Part shown: positions 467 to 10,943 of the stretch, piece after piece
Layout: every line of letters starts with the position of its first letter
How positions within the stretch are numbered: the stretch's first letter is position 1
Origin: a virus
Virus record (IMG/VR): IMGVR_UViG_3300037307_000721
DNA: 64,000 bases
Direction: 5' to 3' (one strand)
Made by a program: the position numbers and the translations under genes
The notes under the pieces: generated by a model
The model's input: only the letters and a program-made list of their open reading frames with translations
Told to the model about the DNA's origin: nothing
Database searches by the model: none

Positions 467-520
467 GTTCTCATGCTTCACGGAACGATGGCAAACGCAG
501 CTAACCACGGAGGAACGGAC

Positions 521-1012
521 ATGACGACCCTGGCGACCCTGGCACTGTGCACCGTTGTTGCGTACCTGGTCTACCGCGCGCTGGACACCGGCGCCCCGGC
601 TGGCTGGTACCTCACCCTTCCGACCACCACCCCCCGCCCCGCTACCGTGCAGAGCGGCAACCCCTGCTGGGCCACCAGCGGGACCATCGAGTCGGACAAC
701 GCGAGCGTGGACCTGCGCGGCGCCTGGGCCACCCCGAGCGTGTGCGCGACGGTGCCCGTGGCCGCTGGCGAGCAGGCCCCGGCCCGTGCGGACGCGGCCG
801 CCTGGACCCTGGCGCTCCCCCGTGTGCAGGCCGTCGTCGGCGCCCTGTGCTTCCAGCTCGATGGGCAGGCCGTGAAGGTGTCCGAGTCGGACGCGGCGGG
901 TGCGTGGCAGGTGACGGACCGCTTCACGGACAAGGTGCTCGCGAGGGTGAGCGCGAAGATCGCATGCGGGCGCGATGGCCGTACCACCAAGCTCACGGCG
1001 GAGGTGCTCTGA
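521..1012 (+). CDS. Hypothetical protein with N-terminal membrane anchor/signal
   Basis: RBS GGAGGA, hydrophobic N-terminus (LATLALCTVVAYLVY), TGATG coupling to next gene. Confidence 0.75.
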   Translation: MTTLATLALCTVVAYLVYRALDTGAPAGWYLTLPTTTPRPATVQSGNPCWATSGTIESDNASVDLRGAWATPSVCATVPVAAGEQAPARADAAAWTLALPRVQAVVGALCFQLDGQAVKVSESDAAGAWQVTDRFTDKVLARVSAKIACGRDGRTTKLTAEVL

Positions 1013-2967
1013 TGGCCGCCACGTACCTGCGCTGCAAGTGCGACGCCCCGGTCCAGGCCCCGACCCGCACCGTGTTCATGCGCTGGGTCCAGGACTTCTA
1101 CGCCGCTAGCGGCATGGCCGCGCTGCTCGCCGGAGTGTGCGGGCGCACCGACCGCGAGGGTTGCTGGTGGGAGATCTCCGGCGACGACGACGGCGCCACC
1201 GAGCTGAGCATGCTGCGCGGTAGCGCGCGCAATACTGCCGGCGCCCTCGAGGCTGTGCTTCTGCCGTACCTGTGCATGGCCGCCGCGTCCGAGCTCCGCC
1301 ACGAGGACTGCTGCCACGGCGACCGCAAGGACGCCCTGTACGCGGCCATCAAGTGCTACAAGAGCGGCTGGGACTACCAGGCGCCCTGCCCCGACTGCGA
1401 CCCCGACGGCGCGCTCCGCTTCCTGCGCTACGCCTACGCCCTGTTCACCGAGTGCGACTGGGCGCAGGCGTACGGCGGCAAGGCGTGGGCGGCCATCGTC
1501 GAGGCGGCCATCGTGCGGCTCGAGCAGCGCTACCTGGAGCGCGGGCGCGCGATCCCGGCGGCCACGGCGCCCCGGACCGGCGACCGCTGCCCCTGCCACC
1601 AGCGCCTGTACGCCGACGCCTACGGCCCCAAGTGGGCGCTCCGCTGCCCCAACACGCAGGACAACGGCCCCGAGGTCAACGTGGTGCGCTTCTGCCGCAA
1701 GGTCGAGGTGTTCGCGGACTACGTGCTCGACCTGGAGCACAACACCGGGTCGTGCCTGAACAAGGGCTGGCTGCACGTGGACTTCGACGCGCTGCACACC
1801 TTCCAGGACATGAAGCGCAACGCCGACCCGATGGAGTGGGCCGGCGCCATGTACCCCCGCGTTGCGGCGCGCGTGCTGGCGCGGCGCCCGGCCCCGAGCT
1901 GGGCCGCGGCCCCGGTCAAGGCGAATGCGGCCATCGCACCCGCGTGCGATTGCACGACCACGGCCACCGTGTTCGGCACCACGCCCAAGGGCTCGGGCTA
2001 CGAGCTGACCGCGGACCCCTGCCCCAACGGTCAGGCCGTGGTCACGGGCAAGTACAACGGCGCCACCTGCGAGTGGCCGACCCTGGTGTGCGGCTCGATG
2101 GCCGCCGCGCAGGCGTACATGGACGGCCTGATGGCCGAGCTGGTGGCCAAGGGCACCTCGGCTGGCAAGGCGTGGCGCGCCAGCGTCAAGTGCCCCGCGT
2201 GCGGCAAGCTGAGCATGCAGGGCTACGCCTGCGACTGCTGCCCCACGGACGGCCCGGACGGGTCGGACCCGCTGAATCCCGAGGACTTCACGGAGTCCTC
2301 GGGATCGGGCGCCTGCGATCCCACGGCCAGCGCGACCTACTGCGCGGCGTGCGACGCGGACCCGTGCACCTGCACCAAGTCCATGACCCTGGACGTGCAG
2401 GGTTGCGAGGTGCAGATTACCGCGTACCACGGCCCCACCGAGGGTGCCCCGTGGCCGGGCAAGGTCGAGTTCAGCGCGGAAGCGCTGCCCGGCGAGTACG
2501 ACTTCAGCACGCCGAGCATTCACACGCAGGTCCGGTGCCCCTCGTGGGCGGACGCCAAGGCCCTGTGGGCGCACCTGACCACCAAGTTCGGCCAGGGCAA
2601 GTGCTGCCACCCGCTGCGCGCCACGCCGAGCAAGCTCCTGACCGTGTTCGGCAAGTACCAGTGGCCGCACGCGGGCGGTAGCGTCGTGCAGTCCCTGAGC
2701 GCGCTCCCGTCCGTGCTGGGGCTCGCGACCTGGAAGGACACCGTGGGCGGGGGCTGCAAGGCCACGGTCGAGCTGGGCGGCGCGCCCAAGTACATGGTGC
2801 TGGCGTCGCCGACCCCGGCCGGGGGCAAGGTGCTCGTGCTCGACCCGGACTCGATGAACGTGCTCGCCAAGTGCGAGGTCAAGGGCTCGATGGGCCAGGT
2901 CAAGGCCCTGGCCAAGACCACGGCGGCCAAGCTGGTGGACGGCGCGGCGCCCGCGGAGGTGCTCTAG
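1012..2967 (+). CDS. Large Cys-rich hypothetical phage protein (W-x3-YGGKAW ... DLEHNTG domain plus several CxxC clusters)
   Basis: RBS GGAGG, ATG overlapping upstream TGA, strong GC3 codon bias. Confidence 0.8.
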   Translation: MAATYLRCKCDAPVQAPTRTVFMRWVQDFYAASGMAALLAGVCGRTDREGCWWEISGDDDGATELSMLRGSARNTAGALEAVLLPYLCMAAASELRHEDCCHGDRKDALYAAIKCYKSGWDYQAPCPDCDPDGALRFLRYAYALFTECDWAQAYGGKAWAAIVEAAIVRLEQRYLERGRAIPAATAPRTGDRCPCHQRLYADAYGPKWALRCPNTQDNGPEVNVVRFCRKVEVFADYVLDLEHNTGSCLNKGWLHVDFDALHTFQDMKRNADPMEWAGAMYPRVAARVLARRPAPSWAAAPVKANAAIAPACDCTTTATVFGTTPKGSGYELTADPCPNGQAVVTGKYNGATCEWPTLVCGSMAAAQAYMDGLMAELVAKGTSAGKAWRASVKCPACGKLSMQGYACDCCPTDGPDGSDPLNPEDFTESSGSGACDPTASATYCAACDADPCTCTKSMTLDVQGCEVQITAYHGPTEGAPWPGKVEFSAEALPGEYDFSTPSIHTQVRCPSWADAKALWAHLTTKFGQGKCCHPLRATPSKLLTVFGKYQWPHAGGSVVQSLSALPSVLGLATWKDTVGGGCKATVELGGAPKYMVLASPTPAGGKVLVLDPDSMNVLAKCEVKGSMGQVKALAKTTAAKLVDGAAPAEVL

Positions 2968-3467
2968 TGGCAACGGTGCTTAACATCACGAACGGCAAGG
3001 GCTTTCGGTCGTGCACGCACGGGACCATCAAGCGGGTCGAACTGGACCCGGACGTGCCCGGCAAGCTGTACGGCGCAGCGGGCGCGTACCTGAAACCGCG
3101 CGACCTGGCCACCGTGGGCGCGCAGGTGTACGTGCCCCTGGCCGGTATCGCGCACGGCGCGGCGCACGGATTCCCGGGCACCGTGCTCAACTGGCGCATG
3201 CAGGACTACGGGTGCTGGTCGGCGGCCACGCTACGCAGGCGGGCGCGGCGCCTGGCCCAGCTCGTGCTCGACGGCTGGACCGTGGTGGTGGCTTGCCACG
3301 GCGGCCACGGACGCACGGGCACCGTGCTCGCAGCGGTCGCGGTCGAGCTGGGGATCGCGGGCGCGTGCTCGGACCCCGTGGCCTGGATTCGCGAGTGGTG
3401 CCCCTGCGCGGTCGAGGCTGAGGTGCAGGAGGACACGCTGGCCGCCCTCGCGTGGGGGCAGGAGTAG
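2967..3467 (+). CDS. Protein-tyrosine/dual-specificity phosphatase family protein
   Basis: CX5R loop VACHGGHGRTGT, C-terminal AVE-x3-Q; GTG start overlapping TAG, RBS GGAGG. Confidence 0.85.
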   Translation: MATVLNITNGKGFRSCTHGTIKRVELDPDVPGKLYGAAGAYLKPRDLATVGAQVYVPLAGIAHGAAHGFPGTVLNWRMQDYGCWSAATLRRRARRLAQLVLDGWTVVVACHGGHGRTGTVLAAVAVELGIAGACSDPVAWIREWCPCAVEAEVQEDTLAALAWGQE

Positions 3468-3470
3468 GCC

Positions 3471-3815
3471 ATGCGGACCACGCTCCTAGCGCTCGTGCTC
3501 GTGCTCGTGCCCGTGACCCCGGCCGAGCGCGCGCTCCGCGCGCGAATGCTCGGACCCGGGGCCAGGCGATACGCTACCCGACCCGTGCGACACGCGGCGC
3601 GGGTCGGGTGCGACGGGCAGCGGGGCACGGGGCACGGCCCCGGCCCCGGCCCTGGGGGCTCCAGCCGGTCAGCCGGCGCGGGGCAGCCGGGCTTTCAGGG
3701 GCAGCCGGGCTTTCAGCCGCGGGAAGGTTCCAAGTCCGGAGCGCAAACCGGACTCGCGGGATCGATACCCGCTCGCGGCACCGATGGCAACGCACAGGAG
3801 GAATGCCATGAGTAG
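3471..3815 (+). CDS. Possible small secreted low-complexity protein (GQPGFQ x2)
   Basis: RBS GGAG, hydrophobic N-terminus; remainder low complexity. Confidence 0.4.
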   Translation: MRTTLLALVLVLVPVTPAERALRARMLGPGARRYATRPVRHAARVGCDGQRGTGHGPGPGPGGSSRSAGAGQPGFQGQPGFQPREGSKSGAQTGLAGSIPARGTDGNAQEECHE

Positions 3816-4938
3816 CGCAGCGACGACGAATTCTGGAACGATTACGGTAACATTGCCCGAGTCCCTGGGATCGTGGACGGGCACGATCCACGCGGCTATC
3901 GCGATCTTGAACCGCCCGGCCGCTGGCGTGTACGGGTTGCGGCTCAAGTCCGTGCTCGAGTCGCACCCCGAGGTCAAGCTCCAGACCGCGGACCTGGACG
4001 CGCTGTTGACGGCGGCGCAGGCGCTCGGCGAGCGGCTCGTGCGGCTGGCCTGGTGGTCCAACCCGCAGCACGACGCGGGCTGGCAGTCGCGCGCGGTCAA
4101 CGCGGCGCGGGCGCTGCTCGCCAGCGCTGGCACGTCAACCCCCGTTCGGTCCGAGCTGGAAGCGCGCGTGCGCGACGGCGAGCGCGTGGTGAACATGAGC
4201 GCGTCCGGCGGCGCGAAGCGCTGCGCGGCTGAGTGGCGCAGGCTGAGCGCGGAGGCGAGCACCGAGGGCACCCCGCTGAGCTGGAAGGAGCACGCGCCCC
4301 GGCTGCGCGCGGCCGTGTGGCAGGCGATGGGCCTGGCGCAGTCGCGGCGCGTGGCCGAGCTCGACGAGGAGTGCGAGTCGCCGCGCCCCTGGACGCCTGG
4401 CGCCCCGCCCCCGTGCGGCGGCATCACGTCCGGCGAGCTGGCGAAGCGCGACCCGCGCGAGATCGCGGGATGCTTCCCGGTGCCTGACCCCGTGCACGCG
4501 ACCCGCGCGGCGTACAAGGCGAAGCACGAGCGCAAGGCGCACTACCAGCGCGTGCGCGCGGCGCGCATGAAGCGCGAGCGCGCGGCCACCGTGGCCTGGC
4601 TCGCGGCCAACAAAAAGACGCGCGCGAGGGTCGAGCTGGCCCCGTGCGATGGCTCGTGCACGGACCCCCGGCGGACCGAGGACCACGCGGCGCACGTCGT
4701 GGCCTGGCGCGCGGAGCAGGCGAGGATCGCGCGGCGCGCGAAGCAGGCGCGCGGCGCCGTGGACTGGCGCGACCCGGGCTTGCGCGACTTCGAGGGCAAC
4801 CCCCGCCCGGCGCGCCCCGTGTGCTCGTGCTGCAACATGAGGCTCCCGCTCCGGCTGGTCGCGGGCGATACCGTCGCCCCCGAGGTCGAGTGCCCCGCCT
4901 GCAACGCGCTGCTGCTGCTGCTGCTGCTGCTGTCCTAG
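3808..4938 (+). CDS. Hypothetical protein with C-terminal Zn ribbon (CSCC...CPAC) and poly-Leu tail
   Basis: RBS AGGAGG, codon bias. Confidence 0.75.
   Translation: MSSAATTNSGTITVTLPESLGSWTGTIHAAIAILNRPAAGVYGLRLKSVLESHPEVKLQTADLDALLTAAQALGERLVRLAWWSNPQHDAGWQSRAVNAARALLASAGTSTPVRSELEARVRDGERVVNMSASGGAKRCAAEWRRLSAEASTEGTPLSWKEHAPRLRAAVWQAMGLAQSRRVAELDEECESPRPWTPGAPPPCGGITSGELAKRDPREIAGCFPVPDPVHATRAAYKAKHERKAHYQRVRAARMKRERAATVAWLAANKKTRARVELAPCDGSCTDPRRTEDHAAHVVAWRAEQARIARRAKQARGAVDWRDPGLRDFEGNPRPARPVCSCCNMRLPLRLVAGDTVAPEVECPACNALLLLLLLLS
4909..4932 (+). repeat. (CTG)8 trinucleotide repeat
   Basis: Read directly. Confidence 0.95.
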
Positions 4939-5247
4939 TTCCCGCCCCTTCCCCCCGCAAGCTTTAACTCCCTGAATTCAAAGCGCATTTCGCCCGAGCG
5001 ACGCATCGCGGCGCGCGCTATCCCATTGATTAGAATCAGGTTTTCGCTGCGACGCGCTAGGATGCGTTTTAAGCGCGTTAAACTTTGCGCGAGGGTCAAG
5101 ATACCGGGGCAAGCTGAAAAACGCCCTGGCGAGGCTTCCAGGGGCCTTGCGCGCGAAGTTTTGCGGGAACCTGAGACGCGATTTCTCGCGTGCGCGCGAT
5201 CCCCGGGGCCTGGATTCTCTCGGGCGTTGTTGCGGATTCTCACGCGG

Positions 5248-5288
5248 GCGCGATGGTTTAGCTGGGGGTTTCGCGCGATGGTTTAGCT
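5248..5288. repeat. 16-bp direct repeat GCGCGATGGTTTAGCT x2 (5248-5263, 5273-5288)
   Basis: Read directly; intergenic. Confidence 0.9.
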
Positions 5289-5355
5289 CGGGGCGCCCGG
5301 ATTTCGGGGCTCCGGCGTAGCTCCGGAGCGTAGCGTAGCGTGGTACGAAAATTGT

Positions 5356-5415
5356 TTGAAATTTCAAGGCTTTGCGAAAAAGGGTTGACTTCGCAAAACT
5401 TTGTGTCAAAATGTT
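5356..5415 (+). promoter_or_regulatory. Sigma70-like promoter (TTGACT 5385-5390, CAAAAT 5407-5412) with palindrome TTGAAATTTCAA and inverted repeat TTTGCGAA-N11-TTCGCAAA
   Basis: AT-rich island similar to the 416-466 promoter. Confidence 0.65.
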
Positions 5416-5599
5416 TGAAAATTCGCAAAACTTCGCGCCCCGCGATGCACCCGTGCTGGCGGGTCGTGCACCTCAACCGAGCATAGGGCTCGGCCTCCGG
5501 TGCGTTGCCATCGTTCCTCCGGTACGGGGGCATCGCGGAGCGCGAAGGAGTAGCGAGATCACGCGCGGGGCTACGGCCCAGAAAGGACAGGAGTTGAAC

Positions 5600-6109
5600 A
5601 TGGCCAAGGAACCCAAGAGCTACGCGGACAAGCTCGCCGACAAGATCGAGCAGGCCCAGCTCGGCGCGGACGCCTGGGAGCACCCGGACTTCCGCTCCGC
5701 CACCAAGCGCAGCACCAAGGCCAAGAAGGCGCAGGCGCGCGAGATCGCGCGCGAGGACATGACCGAGGACTGCCAGTTCGCCATCGCGCGCAAGCTCTCG
5801 ATGGCCAAGGAGATCGCGCGCGAGGTCAAGGCGCACCCCGAGAACCTGGCCGTGCTCGACCCCGCCAGCGCCAAGGCCAAGGCCACCGAGTCCGAGGCCA
5901 AGGCCAAGGCGAAGGAGCTGGCCAAGGCCAACAAGGCGCTCGAGGCCAAGCTGGCCGCGCTCGTGACCGCGCTCCAGACCGGCACCGTCACCAAGAAGGT
6001 CAAGGCCATCGTGGCCGCCGCGTCGTGCGCGGAGTCCGCGCCCGAGGCCAGCACCAGCACCCCCACCCCGAGCGCGGAGTCGGCCACCAGCCAGGAGGCC
6101 GGCAACTAG
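5600..6109 (+). CDS. Lys/Ala-rich helical hypothetical protein
   Basis: RBS AGGAG, very strong codon bias. Confidence 0.85.
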   Translation: MAKEPKSYADKLADKIEQAQLGADAWEHPDFRSATKRSTKAKKAQAREIAREDMTEDCQFAIARKLSMAKEIAREVKAHPENLAVLDPASAKAKATESEAKAKAKELAKANKALEAKLAALVTALQTGTVTKKVKAIVAAASCAESAPEASTSTPTPSAESATSQEAGN

Positions 6110-6128
6110 GATCGCACGCACGCGCAAA

Positions 6129-6201
6129 CCCCCGAAATGGCGCGGCCATGTGCCGCGTCATAGCGCCGGCTGGACCCCGGCGCCTGATGATGGGAGCCTA
6201 G
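6129..6201 (+). ncRNA. Type II hammerhead ribozyme (predicted cleavage 3' of A6162)
   Basis: Core in correct order: CCCCC-GAAA-stem III (6137-6146/6152-6161)-UA-stem I (6163-6169/6177-6183)-CUGAUGA (6184-6190)-UGGG; stem II short. Confidence 0.8.
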
Positions 6202-6205
6202 CGCC

Positions 6206-7132
6206 ATGACCACGATCACCAAGGCGGACATCAAGCACGCCAAGATGCTCCTCGACGCGGACCCCGTGCCCCCGTCCGAGAGCAGCTTGGTGCCCGTGCT
6301 TGACGCGCGCGGCGAACCGACCGGGGAGATGATCTCCGGCGGGGAGCTGCTCGCGCGCCTGGACGTGGCGCGGCTGGCCGAGGCGGACCTGCTCGCGCGG
6401 CGCGCGGCGCAGGTTCGCGCGGACGCGCGCGATCCCGAGCTGGGGGTCGAGGGGCACGAGCTGGCCGCCGCCCTCGAGTGGCGCGACCGCGCGGCGGCGC
6501 TGCGCGAAACGGTGGCATCGTTCGCGAAGGATCGCGAGGACTTCCGGCGCGGGCGCGGTCGCTGGCGCCCGCTGTCCGTGCACGGGCCGGCCCGGGCGTT
6601 CGCGTCCGGCGTCGAGCTGTCGCCCACGGACTACTGCGTGTGCTCCGCGTGCGGCGTGCGGCGCGGGTTGGACAGCGAGGGCACGGTGCACGGCAAGTAC
6701 CGCCTGAGCAAGCGGGCGCCGGCGCAGCACTGCGCGGGCGTGTTCAAGCGAGAGTGGTCGGCGCCGGAGCGCTCGGAGCGCTTCGCGGTCGCGGCGGCGC
6801 GCGAGGCTGGCCGCCGGATGGCGCAGGAGTCCGGGTCCTCGGTCGAGTACGTGGACGTGCGCGATGCGAGCGGTACTTGGCTGCGCACCGAGGCGCGCGC
6901 GGAGGTGGGGTACGAGCTGGTGCTCCGCGCGGAGGAGCAGCTGCGCCCGGCCAAGGTGCCCGGCCCGGGCGGTATCGTGGAGCGCGGCGAGGCGCGGCAG
7001 ATCGCCCGCGCGGAGCGCGCCGCGGACGTGGCGTGGGCCTTGCGGCGTACCGAGGCGCGTGCTCGGCTGGAGGATCGTAAGGCGGGTCGAAAGAACCACG
7101 GCAAGCGAGGAGGTAGACGCGGCGGGCGGTAG
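6206..7132 (+). CDS. Hypothetical protein with CSAC...HC Zn-binding motif
   Basis: RBS GGGAG, codon bias. Confidence 0.8.
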   Translation: MTTITKADIKHAKMLLDADPVPPSESSLVPVLDARGEPTGEMISGGELLARLDVARLAEADLLARRAAQVRADARDPELGVEGHELAAALEWRDRAAALRETVASFAKDREDFRRGRGRWRPLSVHGPARAFASGVELSPTDYCVCSACGVRRGLDSEGTVHGKYRLSKRAPAQHCAGVFKREWSAPERSERFAVAAAREAGRRMAQESGSSVEYVDVRDASGTWLRTEARAEVGYELVLRAEEQLRPAKVPGPGGIVERGEARQIARAERAADVAWALRRTEARARLEDRKAGRKNHGKRGGRRGGR

Positions 7133-7314
7133 CGCCCGCTTTCCGGCGCGCATACTTGGCGTGGCGCGCCCCAACAACCTGGTGATGTCGCGCTCCTGCT
7201 CGTGAACAGTGCACGGGTTCAGTGCAGCGTGGCCAGTCTGTGCGCCGAAGCATGGGTGAATTGCGCCCGTGTGCCAGGTGCTAACAGTCCGAAACGATAG
7301 GACAAGTCTGCAAA

Positions 7315-7447
7315 GTGCCCAAGTGTGCCTTTGGTGTGCCTCATGTGCACGCGATAGGGCACGTTTCGGCACGCCCGAGCACGGGTTTGGCACGCCCGAG
7401 CACGGGTAAGGGCACACCAGGGCACACCCCGAGCACACGACTGGCAC
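7315..7447. repeat. Helically phased GTGC(C)/(G)GCAC array with orientation switch at GTGCAC 7345-7350; includes GGCACGCCCGAGCACGGGT x2
   Basis: GCAC at 7347, 7359, 7369, 7379, 7390, 7400, 7412, 7422, 7433, 7444; GTGC at 7315, 7325, 7336, 7345. Confidence 0.85.
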
Positions 7448-7487
7448 ATCGCGCGGCATCACCCCGAAACCGCAAAGGAAACTGGCA

Positions 7488-8513
7488 ATGCGAGTGAGCA
7501 TGGCGGCAAGCAACTATGGCCCGGTCCGCAACCTGGACCACCTGGGCGCGGCCAGACCGCGGCGCCTGAGCATGCGCGAGGCCATCGAGGCGCGCGCGAA
7601 GCAGGCGCAGGCGCTCGTGACGGCGCGCGCCGAGTGCGAGTGCGCGGCGACGCGCGAGCGCGAGCGCGCGGAGGCGGAGCGCGCAGCCGAGCTGGCCGCG
7701 GAGCTGCGAGCCGAGCGCGAGCTGGCCCGCTTCCAGCGCCAGCTGGACGCCGAGGCGCGCCAGGACGACCGGCGCGTGGCCCGCATCCTGCGCGAGTTCA
7801 CCCGCGAGCTGGACCGCCAGGCCAAGCGCGAGCGCAACGCGGCGCGGCGCAAGGCGCGGCGCGAGCGCGCCCGCCGGCACCGCGAGTACCTCGCCCGCGA
7901 GGCGCGGCGCGCGGCGGCCAGGCGCAAGCGCTACTCCCTGGTGTGGCGCGGGTCGCAGCCCCCGGCGTGGGCGGGTACCCCGGCCACGCAGCCGAGCGCG
8001 CGCAGCCGGGACCTGACCCCGCAGCCGGCCCCCAAGCCGGACACCCTGACCGCCACCGTGGCCGAGTACATCGCCGCCAGCGAGCGCGCGTGCGCGGCCC
8101 TGCTCCCGCTGCTCGACGCCTGCGAGCCCGAGCTCGAGACCAGGCGCTTCGACCCCGAGGACTACACCAACCCCGACCGCGGAGCCTACTCGGGCTCCGC
8201 CCTGGAGGTGAGGCACATGGACCGGGACGACCTGGACCTGTACGACGAGACGCAGCGCGACGAGCTGGCCTGGGTGTACCTCGGCCACAACGCCGTCGTG
8301 CGCCCGACCCACGCCTCGGTCGCGGCGCAGGCCCTGGGAGCCTGCCCGCCCGAGCTGGAGGCGCGGACCGACTGGGCCGCCCTCGAGGCCACCTGCAACG
8401 TGCGCATCCCCGAGGGCGCGGCGCCCGGGAGCCTGACCCCGGAGCGCGCCCGCGAGTTGATGCGCGTGGGCTCCGCGCCCGCTCAGCCGGCCAAGCCCGA
8501 GCTGCGCTTCTAG
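7488..8513 (+). CDS. Hypothetical protein, N-terminal charged coiled coil
   Basis: RBS AAGGA, codon bias. Confidence 0.8.
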   Translation: MRVSMAASNYGPVRNLDHLGAARPRRLSMREAIEARAKQAQALVTARAECECAATRERERAEAERAAELAAELRAERELARFQRQLDAEARQDDRRVARILREFTRELDRQAKRERNAARRKARRERARRHREYLAREARRAAARRKRYSLVWRGSQPPAWAGTPATQPSARSRDLTPQPAPKPDTLTATVAEYIAASERACAALLPLLDACEPELETRRFDPEDYTNPDRGAYSGSALEVRHMDRDDLDLYDETQRDELAWVYLGHNAVVRPTHASVAAQALGACPPELEARTDWAALEATCNVRIPEGAAPGSLTPERARELMRVGSAPAQPAKPELRF

Positions 8514-8528
8514 GAACACCAAGAACAG

Positions 8529-8626
8529 CCAGCGCCACCAGGCGAGGACCGGAGGTGCAGCCATGCCACCAGCCTGGGGAAAGCCCAGGCGGCCGGACCG
8601 AGCCGGTCCTGGCCTGGTGGCGCTGG
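8529..8626 (+). ncRNA. Candidate structured intergenic RNA (multi-way junction)
   Basis: 14-bp perfect stem 8529-8542/8613-8626, 8-bp stem 8545-8552/8603-8610, GCCTGGG/CCCAGGC hairpin 8572-8590. Confidence 0.55.
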
Positions 8627-8645
8627 CGCATCCGGAGGAACGACC

Positions 8646-8927
8646 ATGCTGACCGCCCTGACCATCATCATCCTGCTCGCCGCCGGCGTGGCCGGCTGGG
8701 GCATGTACCTGCACAGCCAGGCGACCGCGCGGCGGCGCGTCGCCCTGCGCGAGAAGCTCAACCGCCTGGCCGGCGACGGCCCGGGCCTGGCCATGGCGCG
8801 CTTCCAGCGCAGCCTGGAGCGCGCCCGGAGCGAGGAAGCCCTGCGCGCCCGTGGCATCACCCCGGGCGTGGCCCGGGTCCAGCTCGAGCTCGACTCGGCC
8901 GAGTGGGAGAGTAGCCGTGCGCGGTGA
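8646..8927 (+). CDS. Small single-pass membrane protein
   Basis: RBS GGAGGA; N-terminal TM segment. Confidence 0.8.
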   Translation: MLTALTIIILLAAGVAGWGMYLHSQATARRRVALREKLNRLAGDGPGLAMARFQRSLERARSEEALRARGITPGVARVQLELDSAEWESSRAR

Positions 8928-9147
8928 CACCCTGCCCAGAAGCGATACCAGGTGTGGTCCCGAGGCCGTGAGCCCGGAGCCCCCGGCACGCGGCGCGGAA
9001 CAGCCGGCGCCGAGCGAGCTGCGCTCGTTCTGCGAGGCCGTGCAGGAGCTGGCCAGCCGCGACTCGCACAGCCGGCCCCGCTTCGAGCGCATGCTGCTCG
9101 AGTGGGCTCGGTCGCTGCACAACCGCCTGCCCGTGAGCGCGTCATGA
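8917..9147 (+). CDS. Hypothetical protein
   Basis: GTG start after GGGAG, ATGA coupling. Confidence 0.55.
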   Translation: MRGDTLPRSDTRCGPEAVSPEPPARGAEQPAPSELRSFCEAVQELASRDSHSRPRFERMLLEWARSLHNRLPVSAS

Positions 9148-9461
9148 TCCGCACCAGCCTGCTCGTCCTGGGAATGCTGCTCGGCCTGAGCCTAGCCGCC
9201 GGCTGGGCCACGGCCAAGCCGCGTAGCAACTGGGCCAGACACGAGGCGGTCTGCCTGCGCGGCGAGATCGCCGTGTGCGCGCAGCCGGTCAGCCAGCGCT
9301 CGCCCGTGGCCGTCCGACCCTACCGGGTCCAGGGCAGCCGGACCTGGCGCGTGGCCTTCGACATCGAAACCGGCGCGGCGGGAGCCGCGCCCATCTGCTC
9401 GTGCAGCCGGACAGCCGACCGCTCCTCGGTCGTGCTGACCTGCACCTGCACCGGGAGGTAG
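9144..9461 (+). CDS. Small secreted Cys-containing protein
   Basis: Signal peptide (MIRTSLLVLGMLLGLSLAAGWATA), six Cys. Confidence 0.7.
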   Translation: MIRTSLLVLGMLLGLSLAAGWATAKPRSNWARHEAVCLRGEIAVCAQPVSQRSPVAVRPYRVQGSRTWRVAFDIETGAAGAAPICSCSRTADRSSVVLTCTCTGR

Positions 9462-9465
9462 GACC

Positions 9466-9675
9466 ATGAAGACCAAGGCCAACGTCGCAGCCGCGCCGTG
9501 CAAGTGCTCGAGGAGCGCAGCCGGCGAGATCAAGGTGGGGATCGTCGAGCCGGCCCTGGGCCTGCGCCCGGCGCGCATGGTCTGGCTGTCCGCGAACGAG
9601 GTCATCGCCCGCTTCGGCGTCGAGCGCGGCGCCGAGCTGGTCGCCCGGGCTCGCGAGTCCGTCGAGAGCACATAG
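9466..9675 (+). CDS. Hypothetical protein
   Basis: RBS GGAGG/AGGA, codon bias. Confidence 0.7.
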   Translation: MKTKANVAAAPCKCSRSAAGEIKVGIVEPALGLRPARMVWLSANEVIARFGVERGAELVARARESVEST

Positions 9676-9677
9676 CC

Positions 9678-10538
9678 ATGCGAATCATCCGGAACACGCG
9701 CGGAATGAAGTGGGCTGAGCGGGCCTGGGATCCCGTGGTGGGCTGCACCAAGATCAGCCCGGGCTGCAAGAACTGCATGGCGGAGCAGTCGGTGTGCCGC
9801 TGGAACAACGTCCTGTATCCGCCGGGCTTCCACCCGACCGAGTACCCGGACGAGCTGCTCGTGCCGGCACGCGACAAGACCCCACGCAACATACTGGTCG
9901 CGCCGCTCGGCGACCTGTTCCACAAGGACGTCTCGTCGCGCTTCATTCGCCGGGTCATGCGCGTGATGCGAGACACGCCGTGGCACACCTACTACCTACT
10001 GACCAAGCGGGCTGAGCGGATGCACGACCTGCTTTCCTCGCTGAACTTCTGGCCCTTGCCGAACGTGCGAATCGGCACGTCGACCGAGAACCAAGAGTGG
10101 TACGATCGGCGCATCGCTTCGCTCGTAACAACGCCGGTGCATCACAGCTCGTTCCGCTACCTGTCGTGCGAGCCATTGCTCGGGCCCATCGAGCTGGGCG
10201 AGCGCGTGCGGGACATAGGCTGGGTGATCTGTGGTTGCGAGCGCGGTCGCGGCTCGCGCTTGGCAGACGCCGCCTGGTTCGCGGAGCTCAAGCGCCAGTG
10301 CCAGGCAGCCGGCGTCCCGGTCTACCACCACAGGTCCCACGACATCCAGGACTTCAACCGTCCGGGCTGGCTGTGGCAGCGCGCCAAGGCGAACGTGAGC
10401 GCGGCCCCGTGCTCCTGCGAGAACGGCCTGAGCCTGACGTTGCACGTCCCGGAACGCCTGGCGAAGTCGCGCAAAGCCGTGGCCAAAGCCCTCGCCGCCG
10501 CGCGCCCCGACGAGTTCATCAAGCTGCTCGTGCCGTAA
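9678..10538 (+). CDS. DUF5131 (phage Gp37/Gp68) family radical-SAM-like protein
   Basis: WDPVVGCTKISPGCKNCMAE, LLTKRAERM, IGTSTENQ, LSCEPLLG, WVICGCE. Confidence 0.9.
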   Translation: MRIIRNTRGMKWAERAWDPVVGCTKISPGCKNCMAEQSVCRWNNVLYPPGFHPTEYPDELLVPARDKTPRNILVAPLGDLFHKDVSSRFIRRVMRVMRDTPWHTYYLLTKRAERMHDLLSSLNFWPLPNVRIGTSTENQEWYDRRIASLVTTPVHHSSFRYLSCEPLLGPIELGERVRDIGWVICGCERGRGSRLADAAWFAELKRQCQAAGVPVYHHRSHDIQDFNRPGWLWQRAKANVSAAPCSCENGLSLTLHVPERLAKSRKAVAKALAAARPDEFIKLLVP

Positions 10539-10542
10539 GTTC

Positions 10543-10595
10543 TTGACGGTGCGCAACTCAACCTGTATCATGGAAGGCGGGTTGGGAGGGAGGCA
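10543..10595 (+). promoter_or_regulatory. Promoter TTGACG-N17-TATCAT followed by G-run tract
   Basis: Near-consensus boxes; shares layout with 48458 and 57580. Confidence 0.75.
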
Positions 10596-10637
10596 TGTTG
10601 TTGTAGGCTATGCCCCTCTCGCAGCCGCTCCCCGCTC

Positions 10638-10943
10638 ATGAACATCGGCCCCATGCTCGAGGCGCTGCCCGAGCTCCTGCCCTTGCCGTGGCGCAACGGG
10701 ATCTGCGAGGTCAGCCGGGAGCAGGCGCGGCAGCTGCTGCGCAGCCTGGCGCCAGGTGCAGGATTCCCTCGGCCGGGTTGGGAGGTCTGCCTGGTGGTGG
10801 AGGAGTCTGGAAGCTGGCGCAGCTCGGTCTGGCTGGTGAACCAGGCGCATCCGGCGAACCTGGAGTTCATCCTGGGGCTGGGCGTTGCCAAGAGCCCCTT
10901 CTACCTGCGCCTCGACTGGCGCAGCATCGTGAGGTTCACATGA
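10638..10943 (+). CDS. Hypothetical protein
   Basis: Codon bias; ATGA coupling. Confidence 0.65.
   Translation: MNIGPMLEALPELLPLPWRNGICEVSREQARQLLRSLAPGAGFPRPGWEVCLVVEESGSWRSSVWLVNQAHPANLEFILGLGVAKSPFYLRLDWRSIVRFT

Follow-up and report, generated by a model that had tools for sequence, protein, structure and literature searches.

Results

A short spacer between two phage genes

The window, by which we mean the whole 64,000-nt stretch of DNA analysed here (IMG/VR record IMGVR_UViG_3300037307_000721), is part of a 193.6-kb contig from a large uncultured phage. It has a G+C content of 67%, and nearly all of its genes lie on the + strand. We focused on a 96-nt intercistronic spacer between two + strand genes, located at 5600-6109 and 6206-7132. 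The upstream cistron, delimited by its translation and GC3 profile, encodes a 169-aa protein rich in Lys, Ala and Glu. The downstream cistron encodes a 308-aa protein (P0002) characterized by a conserved CxxC motif and an Arg/Gly-rich tail. The ATG at 6206 is the first in-frame start downstream of an in-frame TGA (6188-6190), and the N-terminus that begins at this ATG is conserved among homologues.

Searches of Pfam, PHROG and the ESM Atlas matched neither the 169-aa nor the 308-aa protein to a known family. The downstream protein has few relatives. Together with its homologues P0003-P0013, it forms a small protein family without annotation, whose conserved motifs are SFxKDRED, HGPARAF, CxxC and WxxPExSERFA, and whose Arg/Gly-rich C-terminal tail suggests nucleic-acid binding. 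The AlphaFold2 model of the 308-aa protein was poor (pLDDT 64.6, pTM 0.35) and too weak for a fold search. Two 806-aa ORFs were also checked as possible marks of a repeat or a wrapped genome, and proved to be neither.

The 660 nt located 5′ of the 5600 gene (4939-5599) contain no convincing gene. A block at about 5340-5420 (GGTACGAAAA ... TTGAC ...), followed on its 3′ side by a GC-rich leader of about 190 nt, looks promoter-like and is conserved in two related contigs, L002 and L008. A consensus scan of the + strand identified a promoter-like site at 5385-5412 (TTGACT-16-CAAAAT, with TG before it), about 190 nt 5′ of the 5600 gene; L002 and L008 both retain its TTGAC block and the A-rich flank before it. 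This site is likely the start of the transcript that carries the ribozyme described below. No terminator-like site was called on the + strand between the promoter-like site and position 7600. Given the conserved promoter-like block ahead of the first gene and the lack of a terminator-like site between the two, the ribozyme is most likely transcribed within a two-gene (or longer) RNA.

The spacer contains the parts of a type II hammerhead ribozyme

The first-pass annotation of this spacer had proposed a hammerhead with all core nucleotides in the right order, GAAA at 6134-6137, a 10-bp stem III, an AUA triplet at 6160-6162, a perfect 7-bp stem I, CUGAUGA at 6184-6190 and a stem II of only GGG/CCC with a U mismatch or bulge. 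Reading the sequence directly, we found every one of these elements in place, all on the + strand. The element opens with a run of Cs (6129-6133) that provides the 3′ side of the open stem II through pairing of three Cs with G6192-G6194. The core nucleotides G12, A13 and A14 (GAA, 6134-6136) follow; they align with the Rfam consensus and are invariant in 21 related copies, which are introduced below. The stem III hairpin (6137-6161) comprises 10 bp, from A6137-U6161 (A15.1-U16.1) through C6146-G6152, with a single G.U pair at 6140/6158 and the loop CAUGU (6147-6151). The A15.1-U16.1 pair, likewise invariant in the 21 copies, is directly followed by H17, here A6162. The Rfam alignment places the predicted scissile bond at 6162/6163.

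The stem I hairpin (6163-6183) consists of seven perfect base pairs (6163-6169/6177-6183) closed by the loop CUGGACC (6170-6176). It leads into the second half of the core, C3 U4 G5 A6 U7 G8 A9 (CUGAUGA, 6184-6190). Thus, C3-A9 and G12 A13 A14 are all present in the window, and the core is identical in three related contigs (L001, L002 and L008). The pentamer GGGAG (6192-6196) contributes GGG as the 5′ strand of stem II and as a whole forms a Shine-Dalgarno (SD)-like element. In the pseudoknot typical of the class, loop I pairs with the 3′ tail, here AGCCUAG (6195-6201). The arrangement is the type II permutation, with loops closing stems I and III and stem II left open, and the Rfam alignment spans model positions 1-66.

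Stem II amounts to three pairs between GGG (6192-6194) and the C run (6129-6133) in either of two registers. Depending on the register, U6191 either separates A9 from the first stem II pair or forms a U-C mismatch. The published search criterion for this class is a Watson-Crick pair at N10.1-N11.1 directly beside the core (PMC3088659); the window has U6191 there, readable either as an inserted U followed by a G-C pair or as a U-C mispair. U6191 is an insertion in the Rfam model. A nucleotide is present at this place in 13 of the 21 related copies, the best-scoring ones included, so the extra nucleotide after A9 appears to be a regular trait of these ribozymes and not a fault peculiar to this copy.

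For 6129-6205, the minimum-free-energy prediction is the hammerhead fold itself (-34.6 kcal/mol), which is retained when longer flanks are included. The minimum-free-energy fold also adds an outer GCGC/GCGC helix (6122-6125 with 6201-6204), which lengthens the closure of stem II and reaches the base before the start codon. This helix is kept in L001, and GCC/GGC occurs at the matching places in L002. It may be real or a by-product of GC richness.

Covariance-model searches

A search with Rfam hammerhead models had been suggested as a check of the first-pass assignment. When 231 nt around the element were searched, Rfam Hammerhead_II (RF02276) matched over its full length (model positions 1-66) with 32.5 bits and an E-value of 3.9e-5. 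The full-length match therefore bears out the assignment, but its score falls below the RF02276 gathering cut-off of 37 bits, which is an annotation cut-off and not a structural feature. The Rfam score is not decisive, because 32.5 bits alone would be convincing for one window and not over hundreds of thousands of windows. Rfam scans of the whole window, at both gathering and E-value thresholds, returned no hammerhead. This miss reflects a loss at the speed filters and not absence, because the 231-nt search found the hammerhead.

We also built a covariance model, R1, from six other copies, with the window excluded. With filters off, R1 produced a single hit in the 64 kb on both strands, at 6129-6209 (43.6 bits, E-value 5.5e-9; next-best 15.3 bits); as a pattern derived from the window had yielded four of the six seeds, the core part of this score is partly circular, which does not apply to the stems.

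Conservation at orthologous loci and in phage arrays

Contigs carrying the same gene pair were identified through the protein and not through the RNA. Four such contigs (L001, L002, L008 and L010) hold a type II hammerhead at the orthologous spacer, and in three the score exceeds the 37-bit cut-off. L001, whose protein is 84-85% identical to that of the window gene, scored 30.0 bits with RF02276 and thus lies below the cut-off like the window copy itself. L002 (56% identity) scored 44.6 bits, L008 (~35%) 51.7 bits and L010 (~28%) 44.9 bits. The upstream gene has a syntenic counterpart in L002, L008 and L010.

The first-pass annotation would have counted a lack of covariation in homologous intergenic regions against its reading. 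Covariation is present: stems I and III covary strongly around a fixed core. In the alignment of the five orthologues, 99% of pair cells are paired, compared with 69% in shuffles and 37-46% with partners slid, and none of 500 shuffles reached the observed pairing. Double-sided changes occur in 14 of the 21 pairs; by stem, they affect nine of ten pairs in stem III and five of eight model pairs in stem I. None of the three stem II pairs varies among the five orthologues, nor does the AGCC tail, and the core is fixed except in L010, where a C replaces the conserved U4. H17, for which A, C and U are all permitted, is C in L001, A in L002, C in L008 and C in L010. From the window to L001, the base of stem III changes from U-A to G-C and from G.U to U-A and gains one A-U pair, and C replaces A at H17. 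Throughout stem I, the core and stem II, a stretch of 36 nt, the two copies do not differ.

Further copies of the subclass were sought by scanning viral contigs for CCGAAA...CUGAYGA(N)GGGAGCC and then applying the covariance model. IMGVR_UViG_3300028840_005153 carries at least 11 copies in about 16 kb, arranged in arrays in its stretches L004 (four copies, L004 positions 479-4508) and L006 (seven copies, L006 positions 8259-10774). IMGVR_UViG_3300034980_000253 carries five copies, at positions 5294-9212 of its stretch L005. Another stretch from the viral contig scan (L007) was a chance match. A pattern scan of genome contigs returned 27 stretches, about the number estimated by chance, among which was one strong hammerhead (L013, 60 bits with R1). 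It lies at 7319-7390 of L013, a contig from a Gemmatimonadota metagenome-assembled genome; it belongs to the same subclass and stands 24 nt before a start codon with its own GAGGGAGA.

An alignment of 21 copies, including those of the phage arrays, had 95.6% of cells paired, with double changes in 19 of 26 pairs and in all eight stem I pairs; this alignment and that of the orthologues were both fitted to a model, which favours structure, and the slid controls remained at or below 51%. Stem II, too, covaries in other phage copies of this alignment, from C-G to U-A. The position of CUGAUGA is occupied by CUGAYGA or CUGAAGA in 20 of the 21 copies, the exception being CCGAUGA in L010.

The hammerhead is absent from two more distant homologous loci, L009 (judged over 43 nt of upstream sequence) and L038. 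At the same intercistronic position, L038 has a 13-bp hairpin (113-153) with a T-loop-like UUCGACU followed by CCA. The fold z-score of this hairpin is -3.7, and ARAGORN calls no tRNA there. It resembles a minihelix of a tRNA acceptor and T-arm, and may serve as a site for RNase P or tRNase Z; if so, RNA processing as such would seem to be under selection at that spot. A protein-based search of viral contigs found no further homologues, one of metagenome contigs returned only one already known contig, and a nucleotide search of a phage collection gave no match.

Together, the RF02276 match, the three orthologues above the cut-off and the covariation of stems I and III uphold the first-pass identification; judged from sequence, 6129-6205 (+) is a genuine type II hammerhead. 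A chance arrangement of two GC-rich hairpins (such as those of a terminator or RNase III site) with GAAA and CUGAUGA on either side would agree with the ordinary fold energy of 6110-6215 for its composition (z -0.77), with the Rfam score under the cut-off and with the expectation of about one 32.5-bit hit by chance across hundreds of thousands of windows, but we give it almost no credence, since four contigs found through the protein hold the motif at the same place with three above the cut-off, the orthologous stems are rewritten around a fixed core, protein identities of 28-85% exclude the contigs as assembly copies of one sequence, and neither hairpin has a U run on its 3′ side or a terminator-like call, which rules out the terminator reading in particular.

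The window copy has a reduced candidate pseudoknot and an intact core

In most type II hammerheads, at least four pairs join loop I to the 3′ tail as a pseudoknot (PMC3088659). The first-pass annotation had proposed such a pseudoknot between CUGG and CUAG. CUGG (6170-6173) and CUAG (6198-6201) can indeed form 4 bp, one of them G.U; however, this register is shifted by one base relative to that of the class, and the interaction is weaker than in the relatives. In the class-typical register (UGGU/GCCA), the window keeps only 2 bp and L001 keeps 3, compared with 4-5 in L002, L008 and L010. These pairs scarcely vary, so covariation is uninformative about them. The difference lies in both partners: loop I of the window and L001 is CUGGACC instead of the class-typical GUGGUG, and the tail of the window has CCU instead of CCA. 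In a model type II hammerhead studied at 0.5 mM Mg2+, a shortened pseudoknot reduced the rate by a factor of 20 to over 100 (PMC3088659). Because its pseudoknot is reduced and such shortening is published to cost rate, the window copy may be slow in cleavage.

The C4 of L010 suggests that selection on catalysis may not be equally strict at every locus. The CCGAUGA in question (270-276) lies within an otherwise high-scoring copy (44.9 bits) on a single metagenome contig, and could be either a natural variant, tolerated or impaired, or an assembly error.

These observations raise the possibility of a decaying hammerhead, in which an active ancestor has become slow or inactive and the element is now kept for the ribosome-binding site in its 3′ part and for its RNA-stabilising hairpins. 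The Rfam scores of the window and L001, 12-21 bits below those of the other three orthologues, would agree with decay, as would the loss of most of the class-typical pseudoknot in these two copies, the core change of U4 to C in L010 and the drop in rate by orders of magnitude on pseudoknot loss in the model hammerhead (PMC3088659). Yet all 11 of 11 core positions are intact in the window and L001, as are A15.1-U16.1 and H17. The differences between these two copies, namely compensatory changes in stem III and an allowed change at H17 with the rest identical, are what one would expect if selection still maintains the fold. Moreover, a pseudoknot of 3-4 bp is still possible, and the extra U is common to high-scoring copies. 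We therefore consider decay improbable, and retain an active hammerhead as the preferred reading.

Stem II overlaps the ribosome-binding site of the downstream gene

The first-pass annotation had also remarked that the strand of stem II it took as the 3′ one overlaps the SD element GGGAG of the 6206 gene. This overlap is real and is kept in all five related loci. GGGAG (6192-6196) sits 9 nt before the ATG at 6206, and the spacing is 5-9 nt in each of the five orthologous loci, in all of which GGGAG is the only SD-like element before the start. The start codon follows the core by 15 nt in the window and by 9-15 nt across the window's clade. GGAG-type motifs also occur at -9 to -15 before many other window genes, which argues that the phage uses GGAG-type sites. 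Since GGGAGCC is also conserved in copies in which it does not serve as an SD, conservation of the motif is silent on translation; what is informative is that the spacing stays short in every locus and that no second SD is present. Stem II itself varies in length: the window copy and L001 have 3 bp, L008 has 4 bp, and L002 and L010 reach 5 bp, enough to pair every base of GGGAG. The point that sets this locus apart thus seems to be that a short stem II helix is also the ribosome-binding site of the next gene.

Structure modelling gave G6192-G6194 as mostly paired in the precursor and 6193-6195 as free in the 3′ product, in which G6192 and G6196 were paired with bases of the coding region. We also considered masking of the core by its tail and rejected it: the sole candidate pairing (6188-6192/6229-6233, in the coding region) is not kept in L001.

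These features bear on a reading in which translational control is the main role, the uncut fold hiding the SD or a ribosome blocking folding, and cleavage licensing translation of the 6206 gene. It would account for the placement of GGGAG in a stem II strand in five of five orthologues at 5-9 nt from the start with no other SD, and for the stem II of L002 and L010 (5 bp) spanning the whole of GGGAG, with 4 bp in L008. Other phage copies are followed by a start codon 24-77 nt after the core and have their own AGGAGG, which makes the compaction clade-specific; modelling frees most of the SD in the 3′ product; and translation in E. coli can be controlled by engineered hammerhead and twister constructs in which a ribozyme helix conceals the SD (PMC5052635). 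However, the conservation of GGGAGCC is explained by the ribozyme alone, the helix in the window is only 3 bp, there is neither a ligand-binding domain nor a conserved alternative fold, and the predicted UGAUG/CAUCA pairing of the 3′ product is not kept in L001. Unmasking of the SD may even be negligible, a 3-bp helix being a weak barrier to the ribosome. On balance, we regard translational control as the main role as doubtful, and favour cleavage of the two-gene transcript after A6162 as the most likely role of the element.

Discussion

We consider it likely that the spacer encodes an intercistronic type II hammerhead that cuts itself after A6162 and thereby uncouples two cistrons. In the proposed mechanism, the transcribed RNA would fold into a three-way junction of an open 3-bp stem II, a 10-bp stem III and a 7-bp stem I, and would cut itself after A6162. 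The upstream message would then end in the stem III hairpin with a 2′,3′-cyclic phosphate, and the downstream message would begin with a 5′-OH directly at the stem I hairpin, its start codon following 43 nt later. Going by hammerhead chemistry, the cut would thus separate the two cistrons, each capped by a hairpin, and leave a 5′-OH on the downstream RNA.

The effects of the cut on stability and translation, as we infer them, are as follows. 5′-OH and cyclic-phosphate ends, together with terminal hairpins, protect RNA against end-dependent RNases. The uncoupled messages would accordingly be stabilised by their terminal hairpins and end chemistry. Because after the cut only the 3-bp stem II and tertiary contacts would hold the fragments together, the CCC strand should leave, and release of the fragments would also unmask the ribosome-binding site.

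In ribozyme insulators (RiboJ-type hammerheads), cleavage gives the downstream mRNA a defined, hairpin-led 5′ end, whatever lies upstream. This is a synthetic-biology use; by analogy, the window element may play a natural insulating role.

Type II hammerheads between phage genes are already well known, and the window copy represents a sub-threshold case in one small clade of GC-rich phages. The class was described with a loop I/tail pseudoknot, a stem II down to 1-2 bp and clusters flanking single phage genes, and a viral hammerhead 13 nt before a start codon was reported in the same work (PMC3088659). In vivo cleavage has been shown for bacterial type II hammerheads near phage-like genes (PMC8782182). 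With the RF02276 class (Perreault et al. 2011, PMC3088659), the window element has in common the core, the permutation, a very short stem II, a possible loop I/tail pseudoknot with an AGCC(A) tail and an intergenic placement on the coding strand in phage. It differs from the class in its score below the cut-off, its reduced or shifted pseudoknot and the extra U after A9. Furthermore, it is a single copy in 64 kb and not part of a cluster, and its stem II doubles as the SD. The case also illustrates how true hammerheads in phage DNA rich in G+C escape curated cut-offs and speed filters.

HHphage of the haloviruses HF1/HF2 (PMC3088659) resembles the window element in being viral and in lying a few nt before a start codon (13 nt in HHphage) in a polycistronic transcript, and a 5′ end has been mapped near its cleavage site. 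However, HHphage comes from an archaeal virus, carries an insertion in its core and requires high salt, whereas the window element has the consensus core. Overlap with an SD is not reported for HHphage in PMC3088659, in contrast to the window element, which overlaps one.

The phage arrays share with the window the subclass CCCGAAA ... CUGAYGA(U)GGGAGCC, covarying stems and a position directly 5′ of genes. They hold about one ribozyme per small gene, spaced every 0.3-1.6 kb, and where starts were readable these lie about 30-48 nt after the core (77 nt in one case) with their own AAGGAGG. Across the arrays and L013 together, the start codon follows the core by 24-77 nt and has its own AGGAGG-type SD. 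The separate AGGAGG of the arrays is found 20-40 nt further on, whereas the window's clade has no separate SD. Engineered ribozyme switches of the hammerhead and twister types also pair the SD within a ribozyme helix from which cleavage frees it (PMC5052635). Those are designed devices with longer SD/anti-SD helices and usually an aptamer (PMC5052635), unlike the window's clade, in which the natural helix is 3-5 bp and no ligand domain is visible.

More speculatively, the hammerhead of this clade may have been compacted onto the ribosome-binding site such that self-cleavage is mechanically coupled to translation initiation, and an early ribosome could block the cut. We hold this to be unlikely on present evidence; if true, the coupling would mirror in nature what has been engineered in the devices whose SD is concealed within a ribozyme.

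The occurrence of type II hammerheads between phage genes was established by 2011. For their possible benefit to the phage, the locus described here offers a small and clean test case: an isolated ribozyme, two conserved genes and a ribosome-binding site inside a ribozyme helix. Its five natural variants differ in pseudoknot strength, in stem II length and in one core base. Comparison of these variants could tell whether phage hammerheads act by operon cutting alone or also set translation.
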